This document shows, one piece after another, positions 48,665 to 60,392 of a stretch of DNA of 64,000 nt. A program made the translations under genes and the position numbers. Position 1 is the stretch's first letter, and every line of letters begins with the position of its first letter. The notes below the pieces were generated by a model. That model searched no databases, was not told the origin of the DNA, and was given only the letters and a program-made list of their open reading frames with translations. The stretch comes from Thermoplasmata archaeon (GTDB taxonomy: Archaea; Thermoplasmatota; Thermoplasmata; Lutacidiplasmatales; UBA184), in contig JAKIWV010000002.1 of assembly GCA_022749815.1 (NCBI GenBank), positions 194,478 through 258,477 of the forward strand, in the 5' to 3' direction.

Positions 48665-49540
48665 ATGGCCTACGGAAGGTACCCGACCGACGTGAAGGCA
48701 GCGGCCCCGGCCTGGTCGGATTTCAGTTACGTCGTCTCCAGTCGATATCGGGAGCAAGTGTTCGCCGCGCTGGGCGCCCGACCGAAACTTCCTAGGGAAC
48801 TTGCTGAGACAACGCGCCTGCGCCTCGGCCACGTAAGTCGTGCGCTGAGGGAGCTCTCCGACAGACGCCTGGTCGCGTGCCTCACCCCAGAACTTCGCGC
48901 CAGGGGACGATTGTACGGCTTGACGCCCCAGGGCGCCGCGGTGCTGAATCAACTCGTCCGACCGGTCGGCGGGGCGATCGTCGCCTCGACCGAGGACATC
49001 GCCCCGCGCTTTGTCCCGAAGATTCGGGCGTCCACGGTCCTAAGAATGATTCAGTACCTTCGGCAAACTCGGGGCTCAGCCCCTGTCGCTCAAACGATGA
49101 AGGAATGGGGGGTGGATGTAGACGAACTCGCCGAAGATTCCTGGCTCCCCGTCGAGACATGCGCGCGACTTCTCGAGCTGATTGAGCGCAATTTCGGCGA
49201 CGGGAGCTACGGCTTCGTTCGCGAGGCATTCCGAGAGGCGGTGGTCACATTCCCAACAGTACGGGAGCAATTGTCGAAAGCCCTCCCACTCGCCGCGCTC
49301 TCGCGACATGCTCCAACGGTCTACGCGCAGGAATGGAACTACGGACGCCTTGAGGTTGCGGTGACCAGACGGCGGGCGGTTCTCCGGCACTACGATTGGA
49401 CGCCTACACCGGCGATGTGTGCCTTGTTCCATGGCGTCTACGAGGGTATCCTTCAGGCTCGAGGAGTCAAGGGACGAGTAGTGAAAAGTCGCTGCATCCG
49501 GGTGGGCGATCCCTACTGCGAATACGTGGTCGAATGGTAG
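48665..49540 (+). CDS. Transcriptional regulator: N-terminal wHTH plus C-terminal V4R-like domain
   Basis: HTH (PRELAETTRLRLGHVSRALRELSDRRLV). C-terminal CALFHGVYEGILQARGVKGRVVKSRCIRVGDPYCEYVV (C-x3-G...C...C-E pattern of V4R). Confidence 0.45.
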   Translation: MAYGRYPTDVKAAAPAWSDFSYVVSSRYREQVFAALGARPKLPRELAETTRLRLGHVSRALRELSDRRLVACLTPELRARGRLYGLTPQGAAVLNQLVRPVGGAIVASTEDIAPRFVPKIRASTVLRMIQYLRQTRGSAPVAQTMKEWGVDVDELAEDSWLPVETCARLLELIERNFGDGSYGFVREAFREAVVTFPTVREQLSKALPLAALSRHAPTVYAQEWNYGRLEVAVTRRRAVLRHYDWTPTPAMCALFHGVYEGILQARGVKGRVVKSRCIRVGDPYCEYVVEW

Positions 49541-50804
49541 GGAGGGGGGTTGGTTCGAACGTCCCGGCTCCAGTCGAGGGGCTGCTGGCAGACCGCAGGG
49601 CCGCTCCAAGGACCCTGAGATAGGCGTGCAACGAGTCGCGTTGTTCGGATCCGCCTTGGAGAAACATCACCACGGGAATCAGCACGGTCAGCCCTCGGAC
49701 GTCGACCTCGGCGTGCTCGGAGCCAGGGGCCTGCAACGAGACGGCCCGACGTGAGTACTCTGCCCACCGTGCAAACAATCGCTCGTAGTCTTGCATCCTG
49801 GGGCACGGAGCGCTCGCGTCCGCGCGACCCGCTTCGGCCTCCCTATCGTGCGCCAGGGCGAGCGTGACCGAATTGACGATGCCACGTCTGAGGTCGGCTT
49901 CTCGCGTAACAAAATGGTCGATGGCCCCCACGACGATGTCGAGATAGTACCACGCTTCCAGATGGCGAGGCAGGTCAAAATCGCGTGGAAGCAGGCTCGC
50001 GCAAGCGAGGTCGACGAGCGTCAAGGCCCCGATCCAGGTGAGCTCCCCTACGTACCGGTCCACCCAGGGCACGTCGGCCGCAGGGGACGGGAGCCCCCAC
50101 GCGAGGTCGCGCACTTGGGAGACGTCCACCTTGGGTCGCCGGAGGCAACGGGAGACCGCTTGGCCGGCCGCAAACCCCTCGTTCTCCGAACGGAAAGACT
50201 GGGCCACGACTGAAAATTGAGGGGCTGAGAGGAGGGAAGCCCGAATTCGAGAAACTAGCTCGACCACCTCCGCAGCCCACTCGACGGTCAGCCCCTGCCA
50301 CCGGGTTCTCAGCCTCTCGTGGAGCACTTCGAAATCGGACTTGGGTGCGGTGAGGCTGTGAAGCGTCTCGGCGATCGCCTGGCCAACTTCGTTCTCGTCA
50401 AGGTGGGCTTCGTCCACGATATCGTCCAACAGGTCGAACAATCGCACGCACAGCAGTTTCGTGGCCCAAGCGCGGCACACATCGGAATCCGTCATCCACC
50501 CACGGAAGAGGTACGTCAGGAGAAGCGCCCCCGAGCACCGATACATGCTGTTGGGCCGACCGAGGAGTCCTTCGACGGCGGGGTCGAGCATCAGATCCGA
50601 CCCCTTCGGAGCTTGCACCCGAAGCGCGGCCGGGAGCAATCCGGCATCGCGAGCGAATGAATCGAATAATGGGCGAAAGTCCATCGACGGGCCGCCGAAA
50701 TCGTGATCGCGAATTTCCGTGGCGGCCCGCTTCCCGAGCGCGCTGAGTGTGCGGGCGATCCACTCCTCTACCTCTGGGCCTCGAAGGTGGGACGGGGTCT
50801 GCAT
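49467..50804 (-). CDS. Hypothetical protein with a DDxxD/E motif (LFDLLDDIVDE); possible terpene-synthase-like fold
   Basis: An Asp-rich metal-binding-like motif in a helical protein of about 440 aa. Support is weak. Confidence 0.25.
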   Translation of the reverse strand: MQTPSHLRGPEVEEWIARTLSALGKRAATEIRDHDFGGPSMDFRPLFDSFARDAGLLPAALRVQAPKGSDLMLDPAVEGLLGRPNSMYRCSGALLLTYLFRGWMTDSDVCRAWATKLLCVRLFDLLDDIVDEAHLDENEVGQAIAETLHSLTAPKSDFEVLHERLRTRWQGLTVEWAAEVVELVSRIRASLLSAPQFSVVAQSFRSENEGFAAGQAVSRCLRRPKVDVSQVRDLAWGLPSPAADVPWVDRYVGELTWIGALTLVDLACASLLPRDFDLPRHLEAWYYLDIVVGAIDHFVTREADLRRGIVNSVTLALAHDREAEAGRADASAPCPRMQDYERLFARWAEYSRRAVSLQAPGSEHAEVDVRGLTVLIPVVMFLQGGSEQRDSLHAYLRVLGAALRSASSPSTGAGTFEPTPLPTIRPRIRSRDRPPGCSDFSLLVP

Positions 50805-51144
50805 CGTTTCCCTCGGCGCGAGAATGGAGTGTTGGGTTAAGTCGAAAGTTACGAGAATCATACCATTCCGATACCAGACGCTCATCGGATCGAGGCCATT
50901 CCGCCCGATCCGGCGCCTCCTGGTTTTCCTTACCACGAACCTGAGGCCGGACTTGTCAGTGGGGGCTATACTTCCGGGGAAGGGATTCGAAGCTTGCTGG
51001 GATCGATGGCAGTTCTTGGAAGGTCTGCCCCTCGACGGTCTTCCGACCCGTAAGAATCCACCTGTCTGTGAACTGTTCCCAGCTTACCTGACACCTATCG
51101 CACTCCTTTGTGGGCCTCTGCCCAGGGCGCCAAGAGGCCCGATC

Positions 51145-51795
51145 ATGGCTATCCCTGCCACCAAGAGCTCCACTCTAGTCCCCAACCCGACGTACGCGAA
51201 GCCGGCAACGCACGAACAGCTCCTCCGGGCCGCGGCCCGATTGAAGGAACATGGAATCCACGCCGTAATTGTCGCCGATCGAGCGGAGGCACTTAGAACG
51301 GTGCTCTCGCTCATCCCGGAACGCTCCGAGGTGTACACTGCGCCCTCAGAAACTCTCGCCCGCATTGGGCTGGAGGCTGCATTGGAGGAATCCGACAAGT
51401 ACGAGTCCGTCCGAAAGCGCTTGATGGGGTTGAACCGGACCACCCAGGAACGGGAGATCCGTAAGCTTAGCCAGGCCCCCTCGTTCGTGGTCGGCAGCGT
51501 TCATGCGGTCACCGAAGAGGGTGACGTCCTCGTTGCGTCGGCGACCGGGAGCCAACTCGGTCCGTATGCCTACGGCGCAGGGATGGTCATCTGGGTCGTC
51601 GGGGCCCAGAAGGTGGTGCCGACCCTACAGGACGGCCTGAATCGTCTGCGGGAATACGCCTACCCGATGGAGGACGCCCGGGCCCTGAAGGCATATGGCA
51701 TCAACAGTGGACTCAACAAGATCCTGATCATATCCAAGGAGATCAGTCCCGGCCGGGCCACCGTCATCTTGGTCCCGGAAGCTCTCGGGTTCTAA
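51145..51795 (+). CDS. LUD (LutC/YkgG-like) domain protein
   Basis: VIVADRAEALRTVLSLIPE...FVVGSVHAVTEEGDVLVASATG...GMVIWVVGAQKVV. Confidence 0.5.
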   Translation: MAIPATKSSTLVPNPTYAKPATHEQLLRAAARLKEHGIHAVIVADRAEALRTVLSLIPERSEVYTAPSETLARIGLEAALEESDKYESVRKRLMGLNRTTQEREIRKLSQAPSFVVGSVHAVTEEGDVLVASATGSQLGPYAYGAGMVIWVVGAQKVVPTLQDGLNRLREYAYPMEDARALKAYGINSGLNKILIISKEISPGRATVILVPEALGF

Positions 51796-51867: not shown

Positions 51868-52938
51868 GTGCCGGGGAGCGGGGGGCCGATGCGCCGTCAG
51901 CGACTAGCTTTAGTCGCCGTTCCGGCCGTCACCTTTTGCCCTTTGCTTACCGTGTTCCTCGCCATCGGGCTAGGGGCGGCGCCGGCCTCGACGGGCCATG
52001 CGTCCGGCCTACCCGCCTTAGTTGCAGGCTCGACCGTTCCATCGTCGGGACAGCCTTTCGGGGGTATTCAATACCCTGTGACGTTTTCCGAGACCGGCCT
52101 CCCGGCCAACATCACTTGGTCCGTCACGCTGAACGGGTCGACTCGCTCCTCGTCGGGGCCAGCGATCCAGTTTGCCGAGGTCGACGGTAGATATTCCTTC
52201 TCTATAGGGACCGTCGCGGGATACATTGCGAATCTCCAATCTGGTAGCGTCACCGTGAATGGAGGGCCGGTCTCCCAGGCGATCACCTTCTCCTCGGCGA
52301 CATCCCTTCCCTCTGGCTGGAACACCATCACCTTCTTCGGGTTACCCGTCTGGGAGACCGCAGCCATCACCGGCATCGCCGTGGTCGTGGTGGCACTCCT
52401 CCTTCTGGGCCTCCTCGATTGCCCCGACGAATGTAAGCCGAAAGGGGCCAAGGTAGACTGCAGTTCCAGCATTACCCTCGAAATCTATCCGTGCGGCCAA
52501 GCGCCCGGTTCGACGAAGGACCTCGAGACCGGTGCAGAGATCATGGCCCTCGGCGCGAAGCTGGCGGGGAAGCTGGAGGTCTTCGGCGAGACCTACGGTA
52601 AGATGCTCGAGGCGATGCCCGGATGGATTAAGGCCGGCGGGAACGTGATCGGGCAAAAGGTCGGAGTGGAAGTCTACGCCACAGTGAACTGCCGGTGGAT
52701 GGTCTGCACCGACGTACCGTGCCATTATTTCTGGAAGAAGGTCGATTGGACCAGGGACTGGAGATTCTGGGGGCCGTCCAAGCTCACACCCCCTTCGGGT
52801 TACGCCAAAAGCGGCGGGGCGGACTGCTTCGGACCCGGCTTGGACGCTGGGGACCTCTCCGCGGCAATCGGCGGGGCCCTGGACGCCAATGAGAAAGTGG
52901 CGGAGGCCCGAAGGAACTGCAAGAAGGTGTGCGCATGA
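51868..52938 (+). CDS. Single-pass membrane protein with an extracellular ETGLP-module domain and a cytoplasmic Cys-rich domain
   Basis: A signal/TM segment, then YPVTFSETGLPANITWSVTLNGS...FAEVDGRYSFSIG, then a TM (ITGIAVVVVALLLLGLL), then about 150 aa containing about 12 Cys. Confidence 0.5.
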   Translation: MPGSGGPMRRQRLALVAVPAVTFCPLLTVFLAIGLGAAPASTGHASGLPALVAGSTVPSSGQPFGGIQYPVTFSETGLPANITWSVTLNGSTRSSSGPAIQFAEVDGRYSFSIGTVAGYIANLQSGSVTVNGGPVSQAITFSSATSLPSGWNTITFFGLPVWETAAITGIAVVVVALLLLGLLDCPDECKPKGAKVDCSSSITLEIYPCGQAPGSTKDLETGAEIMALGAKLAGKLEVFGETYGKMLEAMPGWIKAGGNVIGQKVGVEVYATVNCRWMVCTDVPCHYFWKKVDWTRDWRFWGPSKLTPPSGYAKSGGADCFGPGLDAGDLSAAIGGALDANEKVAEARRNCKKVCA

Positions 52939-53156
52939 TATCGCGGGGACGGTTCGGTACGTGCCGGCGTTGCGTAATCCTGAATCTAGCGGCGGTTGCC
53001 ATCTCCGCTGGCGGGCTCATCTGGTCGATGGAGAGTTCGGTGTTCCAGCTCGAACCGCTCTGGATCGGCCTTCTTGCCGTGAGCGGCAGCCTACTGGCCC
53101 TGCACCTTCTCTATCGACAAGTCCGTTCAGCGGGCCGAAGCCGGTCGGAGACCTGA
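52929..53156 (+). CDS. Small membrane protein (2 TM)
   Basis: Its start overlaps the upstream stop (TGATATCG...ATG). It is hydrophobic. Confidence 0.3.
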   Translation: MRMISRGRFGTCRRCVILNLAAVAISAGGLIWSMESSVFQLEPLWIGLLAVSGSLLALHLLYRQVRSAGRSRSET

Positions 53157-53405
53157 ACTAGCCCAATCGCGCACGGGTACTGGGCGAGCCCGCAGCAATA
53201 CTGGGAGCGAGTGGGTCGGCCCAGAAGATCCATAGGAGGCAGCTTGGCCCTCGCGCCGAACCTTCGATTCCTCGATAGTTCTCTGTGCAACGGGTCGGCC
53301 AAAGCCTCCATCGGCACGCACATAGCTGGACCGACTGTGGGCGTAACCTCCCCGTGCACCACGCTGCGCTTTTAGGGGCCGGGAGTAGTCGGAACTGGGG
53401 GAACA

Positions 53406-53885
53406 GTGCCCGAGTCCAGCCGGCGGATATTCGCGACGCAGAACATTCGATTTGTAAAGATCGCCAAGGTCCCTCTCTCGTATGCCTACGCGTGGTGTAC
53501 GGACTTCCGGTCGGACGATGGAAAGTTCTCCGGTTCCACGGCGCGGTATCGTGTTCTGAAGGCCGCCCCGGACCGCGCGGTCCGCATCCGGACAGCAAAG
53601 TCTGCCGGTAAAACCCCGGTCATCGCGATCGAGCTGGTCCGGTTGATGCCTCCCGATCGTTGGCACGTCGACCAGGTCGATGAGACCGACCTCGCGGCGG
53701 TCGACTACGAGCTGACGAAGCTCGGGCCCAACAAGACCCGAATCGAGCTCCGGATCACCGAACGATGGATGACCCCCCGATTTCCGAGCCGCTCGGATTA
53801 CCTTCGTACGACCAGCGACTACTGGGACAAACTCGTGGGAGCGCTCGAGACTCGCCACGCTCAAGGGCGCCCGCCGCGCGGCTAG
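53406..53885 (+). CDS. SRPBCC (Bet v1-like / polyketide-cyclase-like) domain protein
   Basis: About 160 aa with alternating beta-strand patterning typical of START/SRPBCC proteins. The call is weak. Confidence 0.35.
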   Translation: MPESSRRIFATQNIRFVKIAKVPLSYAYAWCTDFRSDDGKFSGSTARYRVLKAAPDRAVRIRTAKSAGKTPVIAIELVRLMPPDRWHVDQVDETDLAAVDYELTKLGPNKTRIELRITERWMTPRFPSRSDYLRTTSDYWDKLVGALETRHAQGRPPRG

Positions 53886-53970
53886 TCGGGGAAACGGATC
53901 TCGTGACGGAGAATCCCACCTGAAGAAATGGATTCTCGCGGGACTCTAACCCCACCCGCTCCGGAACTCA

Positions 53971-54010
53971 GGGAGGTGCAACTTCCATTGCACCTCCTTC
54001 GCAGGACGCG
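53971..54010. repeat. Palindromic repeat family, copy P5 (GGGAGGTGCAA-CTTCC-ATTGCACCTCC + TTCGCAGGACGCG)
   Basis: 10-nt inverted arms. It shares the 3' flank CTTCGCAGGACGC with P6. It lies about 135 nt upstream of the YVTN gene start. Confidence 0.7.
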
Positions 54011-54144
54011 GCTCTCTGGACGCCTGACTAATATTGCACGACTAGAAATGGATGGGCTTCTGACGCAGAGTGTGGCTCGGGAACCGAGAACTTAGCTGGG
54101 GGGGAGGCAGCACGTACATAGAGTGGGCCGGCGTCGTGTTTCCC

Positions 54145-56085
54145 ATGGGACCGCGTCCGAGTCCATTGGACCCCCTCGGTCTGGCGATCGTATTTGGAGC
54201 CCTGATCCTCTCCTCGAGCGGCGGGGGTTTGCCCTTCGGGACGGTTGCGGGCGCCTCGGTCAATCCGTTGGACAGTCGGCCCGACGTGCGATCGGTGGGG
54301 GCAGCACCTCTGTACCCCCAAACGTTCACTGAGACTGGCCTTCCTTCCGGATCGCCCTGGAACATTACGCTGAACGGACAGACGCAGAGTGTTGTCGCTC
54401 CGTTGCCGATCGTGTTTTCGGAACCTAATGGAACCTACGCGTACACGGTCGGCGGCCCGTCCGGTTGGGAACTTGTGCCACCTTCGGCGACAGGGATAGC
54501 GCGTGTGGCGGGCGCCCCGAACACGGTGGCACTGCCGAACATCGGGGTGGGGACCAACCCCTATGACACAGCGTACGACACGACGAATGGGTACGTGTAT
54601 GTGGCGAACTTGGGATCGAACAACGTAACGGCGATCGACGGTGCTACGGACAACGTAGTGGTGCCGGGAATTGGGGTGGGGACCAATCCGCTTGGGATCA
54701 CGTATGATCCCTCGAACGGGTACCTGTACGTAACGAACTATGGATCGAACAACGTGACGGTGATCGATGGTGCGACGGAGAAGGTGGTGGTGCCGAGCAT
54801 CGGTGTGGGGAGTGGCCCAAATGTGATCGCGTTTGACCCTTCGAACGGATTTCTGTATGTGGTGAACGGCGGATCGAACAACGTGACGGTGATCGACGGT
54901 GCGACGGACAAGGTGGTGGTCCCGAGCATCGGCGTGGGGGCCACTCCCACTGGAATTGTGCAGGATCGTTCGAACGGGTACCTGTATGTGGCGAATTATG
55001 GATCGAACAACCTATCGGTGATCGACGGTGCGACGAACAAGGTCGTTGTGCCTAGCATCGGGGTGGGGATGAACCCCTATGGGATTGCGTCAGACCCCGC
55101 GAACGGATATCTGTATGTTGTGAATTTTGGATCGAACAACGTGACAGTGGTCAACGGTGCGACGGAGATGGTGGCAGCGCCGAACATCGGAGTGGGGGCG
55201 AACCCCGACTGGATCACGTATGACCCGTCTAACGGCTATCTGTACGTGGCGAACTTTGGATCGAATACCGTGACGGTGATCGACGGCGCCACGGGCAATG
55301 TTGTGGTCCCGAGCATCGGAGTGGGGAGCGGCCCGAGCGGGATTGCGTTTGACTCTTCGAACCGTTTTCTGTATGTGACGAACTATGGATCGACCACCGT
55401 GACAGTGATCAACGGGAATGGTTTGCTGTTGACGGACTGGAAAGTGGCGCCGAGATATCCGGTGACGTTCCCGGAGACCGGCCTTCCGTCGGGAACGATC
55501 TGGTTGGTGACGCTGAACGGTGCCGCGGGTGGTTCCGCCGGGCCGACGATCACGTTCCAAGAGCCCAACGGGACGTACACCTATACCATCGCCCCAATCG
55601 CCGGCTGGACCGTCGCGATGTATCGCGGGAGCCTGACGGTGCCGGGCGCGCCAACCGGTGTCGCCGTGGCCTGGACCCAGACGACCTATCCGGTAGCCTT
55701 CGCAGAGACCGGCCTCCCGTCGGGACGGAGCTGGTCAGTGACGGTGAACGGGGCGCCGCAGAATTCGACGACCTCGACCATCACGTTCGCAGAGCCGAAC
55801 GGGACGTATGCGTACATGATCAGTTCGGTAGGTGGCTATTCCGTCGCTCCCTCCTTCGGGGTTTTGACCGTGAAGGGACCGAACCTTGGGCCGTCGATCG
55901 TGTTCTCTCCCCTCCCTCCGCCTTCGAGACCCGGGTTCCTCGGGCTTTCCGGGAACGAGGGCTACCTGGTCGTGGGGGGCATTGCGGCCGTCGTGGCGAT
56001 AGGAGCGGGGTTCGGGCTACTGCTCCATCGGAGGCAGGCGCGTCAAGTGAAGGTATCCGAACCGGATCCGAAGCGGGCAGCGTGA
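54145..56085 (+). CDS. Cell-surface protein with YVTN-type beta-propeller repeats, three ETGLP modules and a C-terminal TM anchor
   Basis: A signal segment. At least 8 repeats of about 42 aa (NGYLYVANxGSNNVTVIDGATxKVVVPSIGVGxxP). The module YP.TF.ETGLPSG..W.VTLNG...F.EPNGTY.Y appears three times. C-terminal GYLVVGGIAAVVAIGAGFGLLL + HRRQARQ. Confidence 0.75.
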   Translation: MGPRPSPLDPLGLAIVFGALILSSSGGGLPFGTVAGASVNPLDSRPDVRSVGAAPLYPQTFTETGLPSGSPWNITLNGQTQSVVAPLPIVFSEPNGTYAYTVGGPSGWELVPPSATGIARVAGAPNTVALPNIGVGTNPYDTAYDTTNGYVYVANLGSNNVTAIDGATDNVVVPGIGVGTNPLGITYDPSNGYLYVTNYGSNNVTVIDGATEKVVVPSIGVGSGPNVIAFDPSNGFLYVVNGGSNNVTVIDGATDKVVVPSIGVGATPTGIVQDRSNGYLYVANYGSNNLSVIDGATNKVVVPSIGVGMNPYGIASDPANGYLYVVNFGSNNVTVVNGATEMVAAPNIGVGANPDWITYDPSNGYLYVANFGSNTVTVIDGATGNVVVPSIGVGSGPSGIAFDSSNRFLYVTNYGSTTVTVINGNGLLLTDWKVAPRYPVTFPETGLPSGTIWLVTLNGAAGGSAGPTITFQEPNGTYTYTIAPIAGWTVAMYRGSLTVPGAPTGVAVAWTQTTYPVAFAETGLPSGRSWSVTVNGAPQNSTTSTITFAEPNGTYAYMISSVGGYSVAPSFGVLTVKGPNLGPSIVFSPLPPPSRPGFLGLSGNEGYLVVGGIAAVVAIGAGFGLLLHRRQARQVKVSEPDPKRAA

Positions 56086-56227: not shown

Positions 56228-56857
56228 CTAACTGGCGGTCAGAATCAGCTGCCGGTCGATGCCCTGGGAACTGTCGTCCATTGCACGATCGAAATCTTCC
56301 AGTGAGAGACGCTGTTCGGGGCCTAGGTCGGGGTCGTGGAAACTGATCCCACCGTCCTCCATGTTTGTCACCACCACCCAGTGCAGGACTCCGCCCGGAA
56401 AGTCGGGATCCGGTGCGTAGGAGCCCTGATCCACCATCACGATGGCCGGACAACGAAGGGCATCCGACATTCGAAGGCGATCCACCCTGACGGGTTCAAT
56501 TGAAACACGCACACCTCGGCGTCGGGCTTCCCACTCTCGGTAGCGGGCCACGGGGCTCGCGAAGTGACCGAAGGCGGTTCCGACCGCGTCGAAGCTCGTC
56601 CCGGTCTTAGGCCGTAGATGAAACCCCGGACTCTCCTTTGGAACGGTTACGTTGGCCCCGGAGTTGCGGAGGAGGACGGCGAGTCCGGACGATTCCGTCA
56701 TCCCGAACGGGAACAGCCAGCTGCGAGCCCAGGGAACCATGTCCGACCCTGGTCGAACAACCGGGGATCTGGCGAGCCAACCCCGGACCATCTCTACGCA
56801 GGCGGGTCCGCAGCTCCCAATCATCGTCTGTTTGAGATACGGGACCGGAAGGGCCAC
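56228..56857 (-). CDS. Peptidase C39-like (papain-fold) domain protein
   Basis: QTMIGSCGPACVEMV (Gln-x5-Cys-Gly) and a downstream HWVVV His motif. Confidence 0.5.
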   Translation of the reverse strand: MALPVPYLKQTMIGSCGPACVEMVRGWLARSPVVRPGSDMVPWARSWLFPFGMTESSGLAVLLRNSGANVTVPKESPGFHLRPKTGTSFDAVGTAFGHFASPVARYREWEARRRGVRVSIEPVRVDRLRMSDALRCPAIVMVDQGSYAPDPDFPGGVLHWVVVTNMEDGGISFHDPDLGPEQRLSLEDFDRAMDDSSQGIDRQLILTAS

Positions 56858-57101: not shown

Positions 57102-60100
57102 GTGCCCGAGGAGTCGCGTCGGCTCGCCGCGATCGTGCTCACCGACCTCGTTGGTTTCACCGCGCGGACGCGACTTGACGAGACCAGGGCACTTGAGGTC
57201 CTCGAAGAGCACCGGGGGATTGTGCGGTCCGCTCTGCGGGAACACGACGGACGCGAGATCAAGACCATCGGCGACGGATTCCTCGTGGAATTTGGTAGCG
57301 CCTTCGAGGCTGTTCGTGCCGCCATTCGGATCCAAGAACTCATGCACGACTACAACGCCCAGCCTCGAAGGGCGCAGATCCGTGCGCGGATCGGGGTCCA
57401 CGTGGGAGATGTTGTTCACCGTGAAGGAGACATCTACGGCGACTGCGTGAACCAAGTGTCACGAATTGAGCCCTTGGCCGACCCAGGAGGGGTTTGCGTT
57501 TCGAGCCCAGTCTACGAACAGGTGAAACATCAGTTCCGAGAAGGGTTCGTGAAGCTCGACTCCCCCGCTTCGAAGGAGGGTCCACTTCCGGTCGACGTTT
57601 ACAAGATACTACTGCCCTGGGAACAGGGAATTCAGCTTCGGCTGGGGACCGCGAGCCTCGTGGGTCGGGGCTCCGACTGGGACACGCTGAGATCCCTCCT
57701 AGACCGCGCCGCCGGGGGCGAGGGTGGGGTCGTATTTGTGTGCGGGGAGGCAGGGATTGGAAAGAGCAAGTTCGCCGAGCAGGGTCTTGCCTATGCCCAG
57801 AGGCGGAAGATGACCTGCCTTCGCGCCCGGTGCGCCCAGAAGACCTCCGCGATACCCTACGGACCGTGGAGCGAAATGTTTCGGGAACTCGCTCGGGAGG
57901 CGACGGCGTTGTACTTGTCAAAGATCGCCGAGGGTTCCGTCGAGGCTCTGATCACGCTCGTCCCAGAGCTTCGTGACAAGCTCGGTCCGAGCCGTACGTC
58001 GGCGGCCCTCGAAGCGTCGGCGGACGACCGTCGGCGCTTCATCGACCATCTATGCCAAGTCTTCCTCAACATCTCGCGAGATACCCCTCTGCTACTCTTC
58101 ATCGAAGATCTCCAATTCGCCGACGAAGGGTCTGCCGACCTGCTCGAGACAATTGCGCGAAAGGCCCGAGATGCGGCCTTGTTGATTGTCGGGAACGCGC
58201 GAGATGCAGAAGTCGAGGAATCGACTCCGTTCGGACGGCTGAACTTCGTCCTCCATGCGGACCGGCTGAACACGGTGATCTCCCTCAAACGACTCGACCG
58301 GAATCAAGTGGCCGAGCTGATCGGGGAAATCCTGGGGGACTCTGGGGTGAGCGACGAGTTCCGGGACATGATCTTCGGCAAGACCGGGGGGAACCCGTAC
58401 TTCGTCGAAGAGCTGCTTCAGGCGCTCATCGACGAAGGGACGATGTTCCGGACAGGAGTAGGATGGGAACGAAAGCCGATGGCCCAGATTCGATTGCCAC
58501 GTACAGTCCGTGAACTGTTACATCAGCGCCTCGCGCGGCAGGACGAGGATACGCTCAATCTCCTCCGGGTCGCGTCGGTCGTTGGAGTGGAGTTTCCGTT
58601 CGGGCCCGTCCGCGAAGTGACCGCGTTGGATGAGGAGCGCGGCGTCAACGCACTCGAGCACGCGCTCCGTGCGCGGTTGGTCAATGAACGCGAGCTGGGT
58701 TCTGGGCGAGTCGTCTACGAATTCGGAGACCGCCAGATTCGCGACGTTCTATACGAGGAGATTAGTCTCGTTCGGGCGCAGCGGTACCACCGTCAGATCG
58801 CCCAGGCGCTCGAGAGGGATCTCGAAACGAAGGCGGATGAACTGGCGGGCGAGGTCGCGTATCACTACCTGCTAGGCAACGAGCGGATCAAGGCGCTCGA
58901 ATTCTCGATTCGGGCCGGAGATCGCGCCTCCCGGTTGTACGCGCACTCCGAGGCCGTGCGGCAATACACGACGGCGCTCGATATCTTGGAGGAGCATCCC
59001 GACGACCCGGTGCGAGCTCAGCTGTTCGAAAAATTGGGGGACGAGGAGGACCTCTTGGCGAACGCCAAGGGGGCCGTCCAAAGCTGGGAGCAAGCCGCCC
59101 GCGGTTACGAACGATCCGGCCGCCGAATCGCGGCCGGTGCAACGCTGGTCAAAGTGGCCGGTCACCTTGCAAGCATGCTCGTGGATCGGCCGCGATCGAT
59201 TCAAGTTTTTGGCGAGGCGCGGCAAATGCTGGAGTCCGAAACTGAATCGCCAGAGTTGGCGTGGCTGTACGCTCAATTGGCCGCGGTACATTCGTATTCG
59301 TCCGGCACGAGCGAACTCGTCCAGGACCTGTGCCGCCGGGCCATCGCTCTCGGGGAACGGCTCAAGTCACGCAGCGCAGAGATCTCAGCGTACAGCACGC
59401 TCTCGACCGTGCTTCCGGCCCACGAACGCCGGAAGGCCCTCGATCTTCAGAAGAAAGCCCTAGATATTGCCGTCTTGAACCGGTCCGAGGTCCTGACTAT
59501 GGATGCCTACTCCGCTCTCGGATTTTCCACAATCCAACTGGACGGAGATTGCGCTGGGGCCCTTCGATGCCAGCAGCACGCGCTCGAGATGGCGACCCGA
59601 GCCGCGGCAATTGGATTGGAAATGCGGCTTCGGGGGGTACAGATATCCCTCGTGTTCATTCGGATGGGCCGCCTCCGCGAAGCCCGACAGTCGTCGGAGG
59701 AACTCTACCGATTCGCCGCGGAACATTTGCCGCGGAGGCGATGGACCGACTTGTGCATTCTAGGGGAGGTGCTAGTGCTCCAAGGCCAGTTGACTCGGGC
59801 CCAGGAGGTCCTAGCCGAGTGGGACTCCCTTCCGAAGGATTCGGTGCCATGGTACTGTCAAGCACGAACGAGCTCGGTGCTCGCCGAACTCGATCTGGCT
59901 CTGGGAAGACAGGATTCCGCTGAGAAGCGCCTCGAGACCGCGTGCGACTTGGCCCGGCGCCAGGGCTTCGCTGCGGTGCACGCCTACGATGCTGCGAAGG
60001 CGCTGGCGCTCCTGGTCGAGTGCCGCCTCCGGCGGTCACAACAAAGGGAAGCCGAAGATGCGCTTCAAGAATTGAAACGGCTGGGGGACGCTTTTGATGG

Positions 60101-60392
60101 AGATGTGGTCTCCGGATACCGGCTTCGTGCCGAGGGCCTGTGGGATGCGGCCCGCGGGGATCGAGCTGCTGCTGTTCGCCATTTGCAGCAGAGTATCGTC
60201 GTCTGGGAGCGAGTGGCTTGGCCCTACGAAGTTGCTCAATCGCAATTCTATCTCGGAAGAGTTTACGCCCAGTCGGGTGACACTACTTCTGCGGCCGTCG
60301 CCAAGAAGCAAGCGCTGGAAGGGTTCACCCGAATCGACGCGCAGCTCGGCGTAAAACGCGTCTCGGCTGAGAAGGAGCCACTCCAAGCTTAG
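57102..60392 (+). CDS. Class III adenylyl/guanylyl cyclase domain + STAND P-loop NTPase + TPR-like repeats (1096 aa)
   Basis: N-terminal cyclase-homology domain (IVLTDLVGFTART...IKTIGDGFLVEF...IGVHVGDVV). Walker A VFVCGEAGIGKSKF. Walker B LLLFIEDLQFADEGS. C-terminal helical repeats. Confidence 0.75.
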   Translation: MPEESRRLAAIVLTDLVGFTARTRLDETRALEVLEEHRGIVRSALREHDGREIKTIGDGFLVEFGSAFEAVRAAIRIQELMHDYNAQPRRAQIRARIGVHVGDVVHREGDIYGDCVNQVSRIEPLADPGGVCVSSPVYEQVKHQFREGFVKLDSPASKEGPLPVDVYKILLPWEQGIQLRLGTASLVGRGSDWDTLRSLLDRAAGGEGGVVFVCGEAGIGKSKFAEQGLAYAQRRKMTCLRARCAQKTSAIPYGPWSEMFRELAREATALYLSKIAEGSVEALITLVPELRDKLGPSRTSAALEASADDRRRFIDHLCQVFLNISRDTPLLLFIEDLQFADEGSADLLETIARKARDAALLIVGNARDAEVEESTPFGRLNFVLHADRLNTVISLKRLDRNQVAELIGEILGDSGVSDEFRDMIFGKTGGNPYFVEELLQALIDEGTMFRTGVGWERKPMAQIRLPRTVRELLHQRLARQDEDTLNLLRVASVVGVEFPFGPVREVTALDEERGVNALEHALRARLVNERELGSGRVVYEFGDRQIRDVLYEEISLVRAQRYHRQIAQALERDLETKADELAGEVAYHYLLGNERIKALEFSIRAGDRASRLYAHSEAVRQYTTALDILEEHPDDPVRAQLFEKLGDEEDLLANAKGAVQSWEQAARGYERSGRRIAAGATLVKVAGHLASMLVDRPRSIQVFGEARQMLESETESPELAWLYAQLAAVHSYSSGTSELVQDLCRRAIALGERLKSRSAEISAYSTLSTVLPAHERRKALDLQKKALDIAVLNRSEVLTMDAYSALGFSTIQLDGDCAGALRCQQHALEMATRAAAIGLEMRLRGVQISLVFIRMGRLREARQSSEELYRFAAEHLPRRRWTDLCILGEVLVLQGQLTRAQEVLAEWDSLPKDSVPWYCQARTSSVLAELDLALGRQDSAEKRLETACDLARRQGFAAVHAYDAAKALALLVECRLRRSQQREAEDALQELKRLGDAFDGDVVSGYRLRAEGLWDAARGDRAAAVRHLQQSIVVWERVAWPYEVAQSQFYLGRVYAQSGDTTSAAVAKKQALEGFTRIDAQLGVKRVSAEKEPLQA

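Follow-up and report, generated by a model that had tools for sequence, protein, structure and literature searches.

In surface proteins of the SdrD, Cna and SpaA type, B-type domains form the stalk and A domains bind the ligand. Prealbumin-like stalk domains occur as head-to-tail tandems in cell-surface proteins, and the described families that come closest to the domain treated here, CarboxypepD_reg (PF13620), PEGA (PF08308), SdrD_B (PF17210), SpaA and CnaB, are all-beta sandwiches of ~75–90 amino acids. Two archaeal proteins are further points of reference: the Methanosarcina mazei surface-layer protein 1L0Q combines a seven-bladed YVTN propeller with small beta-sandwich domains, and SlaB of Sulfolobus acidocaldarius (8QOX) stacks beta-sandwich domains on a C-terminal membrane anchor. 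In the Thermoplasmatales, which lack a surface layer (S-layer), an unordered ‘exterior protein layer’ of ~20 nm replaces it; the identity of its protein is still to be determined (PMC12448462). We analysed 64,000 nucleotides of a Thermoplasmata archaeon (GCA_022749815.1, contig JAKIWV010000002.1, positions 194,478–258,477; hereafter the window; G+C 58–70%), in which a predicted extracellular module of ~77 residues recurs in two surface proteins encoded on the plus strand: protein A, with one copy, in an open reading frame (ORF) at 51868–52938 (356 residues from GTG 51868), and protein B, with three, in an ORF at 54070–56085 (671 residues from GTG 54070). The module is a real, very abundant and uncurated domain, and its kind is conventional, a beta-sandwich stalk repeat; it is probably an N-glycosylated rigid spacer, or stalk, of Thermoplasmatota surface proteins.

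The motif YP.[TA]F.ETGLP is found once in protein A, at residue 69, and three times in protein B, at residues 82, 463 and 540. These mark copy A (residues 69–143, 52072–52296), copy B1 (residues 82–157, 54313–54540), copy B2 (residues 463–539, 55456–55686) and copy B3 (residues 540–614, 55687–55911), the last of which abuts B2 with no linker; B1 lies N-terminal and B2 C-terminal to the propeller of protein B. Aligned as four 77-residue segments, the copies have 21 invariant columns and pairwise identities of 39–51%. A profile built without window sequences recovered B1 at E = 8e-21 and both B2 and B3 at E = 2e-30; it also recovered copy A at E = 8e-33, in this case with modules of protein A orthologues included in the profile. 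Because of these E values and the 21 invariant columns, the fourfold repeat is real and far beyond chance, and the four segments are confirmed as true copies of one domain. The original prediction, made from the window sequence alone, had thus placed the four copies correctly, although it gave the module as 50–75 residues long, shorter than the ~77 residues that we measured (mode 77 and median 79 across the family). Against all six translated frames of the window, the external profile found nothing beyond the four copies below E = 1, and a profile of the four copies themselves found no fifth. The window contains no tRNA or Rfam features that bear on the repeat.

The module is not special to these two proteins; similarity confined to the pair would, by the original prediction, have spoken against it. 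A HMMER search with a 10-sequence module profile against 1.84 billion cluster representatives (50% identity) returned 7,651 representatives at E ≤ 1e-3, of which 3,569 remain at the stricter E ≤ 1e-30, that is, thousands of copies beyond the protein A and protein B pair. Matched stretches number up to 44 per protein, with a median of 10 among the 150 best, and the spacing from one copy to the next has a mode of 77 residues and a median of 79 (n = 1,621 pairs), which indicates that tandem copies are joined without linkers. In the source databases, module proteins go by ‘hypothetical protein’, ‘YVTN family beta-propeller protein’ or the old ‘thermopsin precursor’.

Scanning genomes, one for each GTDB species, gave at least 533 confirmed module stretches. 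The best 80 of these at least 533 stretches come almost entirely from metagenome-assembled genomes (MAGs) of Thermoplasmata/Thermoplasmatota from soil, peat and mine drainage; the remainder are one Micrarchaeota MAG, one Marsarchaeota MAG and a few MAGs whose only label is ‘bacterium’. Six of the best 80 loci (L001, L005, L008, L011, L013 and L054) belong to a single assembly, ‘MAG: bacterium isolate DX1.bin10’ (JAKBKR01), which probably either represents a Thermoplasmatota genome under a label that says little, or mixes several genomes in one bin. The patterns that we used picked out no module copy among the viral contigs of IMG/VR. The loci that we fetched hold 116 ORFs with 1–25 module copies, and two or more module genes are present in 24 of 82 loci, making a pair of neighbouring module genes a common arrangement. 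Proteins A and B were originally described as neighbours; they do lie in the same region, but their genes are not adjacent, being separated by ~1.1 kb.

No current Pfam or NCBIfam model covers the module, which the original prediction could not assign to a named domain. Searches with Pfam-A and NCBIfam gave no significant match over the modules of proteins A and B, and among 93 single copies taken from many proteins none reached the gathering score of any family. PEGA, PKD (PF00801) and CARDB (PF07705), the described domains that the original prediction had put forward as identities that would make the module a known one, gave no match to protein A or protein B even at E ≤ 1 and are not among the 25 families most often matched by the 93 copies; the PEGA and PKD domains that some module proteins contain occupy segments separate from the modules. 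The weak single-copy matches that do occur, to CarboxypepD_reg in 5 of 93 copies (best E 0.0048), to SpaA in 3 of 93 (E 0.0022) and to SdrD_B in 3 of 93 (E 0.026), are far below the cut-offs. Against sequences of the PDB, the best match of a 93-copy profile was a SpaA-like prealbumin-fold chain at E = 0.0019.

The module might nevertheless be a divergent member of a described Pfam family, PEGA or CarboxypepD_reg, with which it probably shares its fold class and whose core is resembled by its ‘pNGtY.y.v....GY......v.V.G’ stretch. We consider this highly improbable. An hhalign comparison of the module profile with one PEGA sequence pairs EPNGTYTYTI..GW with EFPGVYHVTVQSKGY, but without statistical support (probability 0.8%); PEGA was matched by 0 of the 93 copies and CarboxypepD_reg by five, none of them below E = 0.0048; and one protein (P0058) has a bona fide PEGA domain beside modules that the PEGA model misses. 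Precomputed matches from a newer Pfam release are likewise blank for most module-only proteins. PF27154 is listed for two module-only proteins; this is ‘ORF11_beta’, a ‘faint’ match only, and we did not adopt it as a name for the module. DUF1214, Pectate_lyase_5, NOMO1-like and Cep192_D3, which appear on multi-copy proteins, were also set aside, as no single stretch passes and the matches are sums of weak partial ones.

The module resembles the prealbumin-like stalk domains in its head-to-tail tandems, in a ‘G.Y...v...GY....v.V’ motif and at the level of fold, with template modelling scores relative to the query (TMq) of 0.6–0.74. Unlike those families, it has a strict N-terminal motif of its own, Y.V.F.E.GLP.G..W, together with an EPNGTY sequon, and a distribution that is essentially confined to Thermoplasmatota. 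Nor does it have a conserved Lys or Asp that could form the intramolecular isopeptide bond of CnaB domains, which takes a Lys, an Asn or Asp and a catalytic acid, or build the calcium sites of SdrD-B (Lys+Arg 2.3%, Asp 1.1%): the near-invariant columns are F, E, G, L, W, G, G, Y, G, V and G, and none of the conserved columns is a Lys, a residue that makes up 1.2% of the copies.

We modelled residues 456–543 of protein B (copy B2 with its flanks, 55435–55698) with AlphaFold2, using the 93-copy alignment. The model is all-beta with eight strands, a mean predicted local distance difference test (pLDDT) score of 95.3 and a predicted template modelling score of 0.81, in line with the small beta-sandwich first proposed. 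Foldseek found no PDB entry at E ≤ 1e-3 for this model; the best fold matches in the PDB, at TMq 0.5–0.7, were the beta domain of rhamnogalacturonan lyase, the Bacillus anthracis TIE protein, SdrD B domains and UafA, followed by Gram-positive pilins, NOMO1 and SlaB. In BFVD there were seven matches at E ≤ 1e-3 with TMq 0.65–0.72, among them a ‘Carboxypeptidase regulatory-like domain protein’, cell-wall-anchor proteins and baseplate proteins. The model points to a small autonomous beta-sandwich, probably of the prealbumin/transthyretin-like fold class, with a likeness at the fold level only. The same is true of SlaB, whose likeness to the module is weak (8qox_B, TMq 0.56, E 0.07) and comes with no visible sequence similarity; SlaB also differs from the module proteins in having a coiled coil and in forming a lattice with its partner SlaA.

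The partners of the modules go beyond YVTN propellers. The original prediction had raised the question of whether they always accompany YVTN propellers; scored with a profile of the seven blades of protein B, YVTN repeats accompany modules in only 13 of 59 and 26 of 150 proteins and in 29 of 116 genomic-locus ORFs (~17–25%). Other partners include Ice_binding, Kelch propellers, NHL, Flg_new_2, PKD, PEGA, Big_3_5 and phosphoesterase domains, and the modules themselves fill ~70% of a typical carrier protein. A C-terminal hydrophobic helix followed by a basic tail is present in 33 of 59 and 79 of 150 module proteins. Directly before such a transmembrane helix and basic tail, 28 of 209 module proteins (for example P0013, P0023, P0081 and P0114) have a juxtamembrane [GT]FLGLPG.[ED]GY motif, and related motifs stand in the two window proteins, PGFLGLSGNEGY in protein B and FFGLPVWE in protein A. 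No described NCBIfam CTERM sorting model matches this motif, so that it may act as a processing or sorting signal of a kind not described before. The anchors and the extracellular type of the partner domains would place the module outside the cell, where the original prediction had put it.

Protein B shows how such a protein may be built. Its layout is a signal-like segment, module B1, a seven-bladed YVTN propeller, the abutting modules B2 and B3 and a C-terminal membrane anchor. The seven propeller repeats (54541–55419) have a 43-residue period and match TIGR02276 at E = 6.3e-55 in seven stretches, in agreement with the ~42-residue tandem repeats of the YVTN family, seven of which make one propeller; the best PDB match of the propeller is 1l0q_A, annotated as a surface layer protein, at E = 7e-35. 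Where 1L0Q has PKD after its propeller, protein B has the module instead and no PKD match. Unlike 1L0Q, protein B also has one module copy before the propeller and ends in a transmembrane anchor with an FLGL motif. That anchor (55930–56082) consists of the PGFLGLSGNEGY motif (55930–55965), the transmembrane helix directly behind it (residues 633–652, 55966–56025) and a basic tail, HRRQARQ.... The ‘PGFLGL...’ tail could be taken for a PGF-CTERM/archaeosortase signal, and ‘PGF’ does precede the helix, yet no CTERM model matches. Such models describe a signature motif, a transmembrane helix and a basic tail; for the isolated tail, the sole match was to GPS-CTERM, at E = 0.22, while an unrelated tail scored 23.6 bits with GG_III-CTERM (cut-off 22). 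Protein B probably starts at ATG 54145 (M26) rather than at GTG 54070, since the first 25 residues of the longest ORF are unlike a signal peptide; from ATG 54145 the protein reads MGPRPSPLDPLGLAIVFGALIL....

The consensus of the module is Y.VtF.E.GLP.Gt.WsVtlnG...ss....i.F.epNGtY.y.vg.v.Gy...p.sGsvtV.G........F. Its copies are rich in Ser and Thr (30%) and poor in Cys (0.1%), Lys+Arg (2.3%) and Asp+Glu (4.1%), and have on average 2.6 N-X-S/T sequons each; 83% of the 93 copies have one of these at the EPNGTY turn, which in B2 lies at 55567–55575. N-glycosylation is established for Thermoplasma membrane proteins (PMC11407970), and the EPNGT Asn of the module would be its counterpart here. Conservation reaches 80% of copies or more at hydrophobic residues that alternate along the predicted strands, at Gly and Asn turns, in the E-x-G-L-P-x-G loop and at the glycosylation sequon. 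This pattern would suit a structural unit, with the loop and the sequon as its only candidate functional surfaces.

These observations also bear on the role first suggested for the module, that of a specific adhesion or ligand-recognition unit (carbohydrate-binding, for example), whose arrays would raise avidity. Several of its fold neighbours do belong to adhesins or to enzymes that act on carbohydrates (rhamnogalacturonan lyase, UafA, SdrD and pilus adhesins), the near-invariant loop E-[TS]-G-L-P-x-G-[TS]-x-W looks solvent-exposed, and many proteins consist of modules only and have no other functional head. The parts matched in the SdrD, Cna and SpaA-type proteins, however, are stalk domains and not the ligand-binding A domains; outside the one loop, it is the core and the turns that are conserved, and the remaining positions vary, in copies that are 30% Ser and Thr; and the module occurs in 1–44 copies with many unrelated heads. 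An adhesion or recognition role therefore finds no direct support, with a conservation that is structural and nearest folds that are stalk domains, and we regard it as rather unlikely.

If the module is instead a spacer, as we think probable, its arrangement can be read as follows. Modules, which join head to tail without linkers, from one to 44 per protein, would form a stalk that lifts variable ‘head’ domains off the membrane, the seven-bladed YVTN propeller being the head of protein B. Arrays commonly close with FLGLPG.EGY at the membrane, a single transmembrane helix and a basic tail that would lie in the cytoplasm, and such proteins would collectively contribute to the outer protein coat of the cell. 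Protein A would be the minimal version, with a signal-like segment, one module and an FFGLP-transmembrane anchor, fused to a lineage-restricted cytoplasmic domain of 173 residues. The repeat, its family size, the modelled fold class, the partner domains, the anchors and the conserved sequon were observed here; the stalk role, the extracellular location, the glycosylation and the topology of protein A are predictions from sequence and from the B2 model. Several points weigh against them. The extracellular location is predicted from anchors and partner domains. The N-G-T may be conserved as a structural element, an Asn-Gly beta-turn, and not for glycosylation. The core has no obvious need of the strictly conserved loop E-[TS]-G-L-P-x-G, which could serve for binding or for contacts between domains. 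The lone module of protein A, finally, is poorly explained by a pure spacer role.

Protein A consists of a signal-like segment, a linker of ~30 residues, module A, the FFGLPVWE motif, a transmembrane helix and a Cys-rich C-terminal domain. The N-terminal hydrophobic segment (residues 13–38, 51904–51981) follows MRRQR, is conserved in orthologues and would be a signal peptide or signal anchor; FFGLPVWE lies at 52333–52356 and is followed directly by the helix (residues 164–183, 52357–52416) and then by the C-terminal domain (52417–52935, 173 residues). The single copy at residues 69–143 is the only folded ectodomain of the protein, as originally described. The ORF is identical to NCBI L3K14_04285 (P0011) over its 286-residue gene call, whose start, GTG 52078, falls inside the module and loses the signal-like N terminus. 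Orthologues P0010, P0012 and P0015 align end to end with protein A (orthologue length 347–356 residues). Because the orthologues retain the N-terminal signal-like segment, the start probably lies upstream, likely at ATG 51889 and not at GTG 51868.

The C-terminal domain was first described as a cluster-like domain with 12 Cys. We counted 10 (11 in the whole ORF), spaced CX3C..C..C...CX4CX4C...C...CX3C. Over four orthologues the domain is 62–90% identical, which is above the conservation of the ectodomain, and all 10 Cys are invariant; it also contains a Trp-rich DWT.DWRFWGP motif. Its topology and the near absence of Cys from the extracellular modules suggest that it is cytoplasmic. The 173 residues have no match in Pfam, NCBIfam or PDB sequences. 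In the databases searched, the only homologues were the four full-length or partial orthologues: a protein database search with the domain returned itself and one orthologue fragment, JGI metagenome contigs gave none, and among the 82 fetched loci only the known orthologue locus (L082) has it.

This architecture is what had led to the suggestion that protein A is a one-pass transmembrane sensor, in which the module would detect an external signal and pass it to a cytoplasmic Cys-rich metal-cluster domain. The order of parts (basic N terminus and hydrophobic segment, module, transmembrane helix, 173-residue domain) fits such a sensor, as do the higher conservation of the C-terminal domain, with its invariant Cys, and the contrast in Cys content across the membrane. 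Yet the same searches of Pfam, NCBIfam and PDB sequences found no recognizable transmitter or output domain on the cytoplasmic side; we read the Cys spacing as matching no canonical signature of an Fe-S cluster or a zinc finger; the known orthologues number just four; and the ectodomain is the generic stalk unit of thousands of non-sensor proteins. The gene neighbourhood also differs in the one orthologue with usable context, where the neighbour genes are different and no YVTN gene adjoins. A single-sequence AlphaFold2 model of the whole protein was uninformative (pLDDT 42.5). We therefore hold a sensor to be decidedly improbable. The orphan Cys-rich domain is a minor curiosity confined to a narrow lineage.

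The surrounding genes are of mixed character. Upstream of protein A, a gene at 48665–49540 (plus strand) encodes an HVO_A0261-like winged-helix protein, and one at 50719–51795 (plus strand) a LUD-domain protein, whose Pfam match begins at residue 170 and whose longest ORF probably starts too early. The gap between the genes of proteins A and B holds two overlapping ORFs on opposite strands, 53406–53885 (plus, 159 residues) and 53127–53864 (minus, 245 residues), neither with a Pfam match. Immediately downstream of protein B lies a convergent gene for a 209-residue peptidase C39-like (DUF3335) protein (56228–56857, minus strand). Past it, ~1 kb downstream of protein B, a gene at 57102–60392 (plus strand) encodes a large signal-transduction ATPase of 1096 residues, with an adenylate/guanylate cyclase catalytic domain, an AAA_16 ATPase domain and C-terminal TPR repeats.

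Thousands of Thermoplasmatota surface proteins are annotated only as ‘hypothetical’ or ‘YVTN family’ because their dominant domain has no model. A curated module family would annotate a large share of the predicted Thermoplasmatota surface proteome, and would also correct wrong starts such as that given by NCBI for protein A. For the cell surface itself, module arrays are a concrete candidate for the glycoprotein coat of the S-layer-less Thermoplasmatales (PMC12448462). At ~4 nm per sandwich domain, arrays of three to six would come close in length to the ~20 nm of this layer. Tentatively, anchored module arrays, N-glycosylated at EPNGT, may even be the main protein of this layer, and FLGLPG.EGY a new processing or sorting signal.

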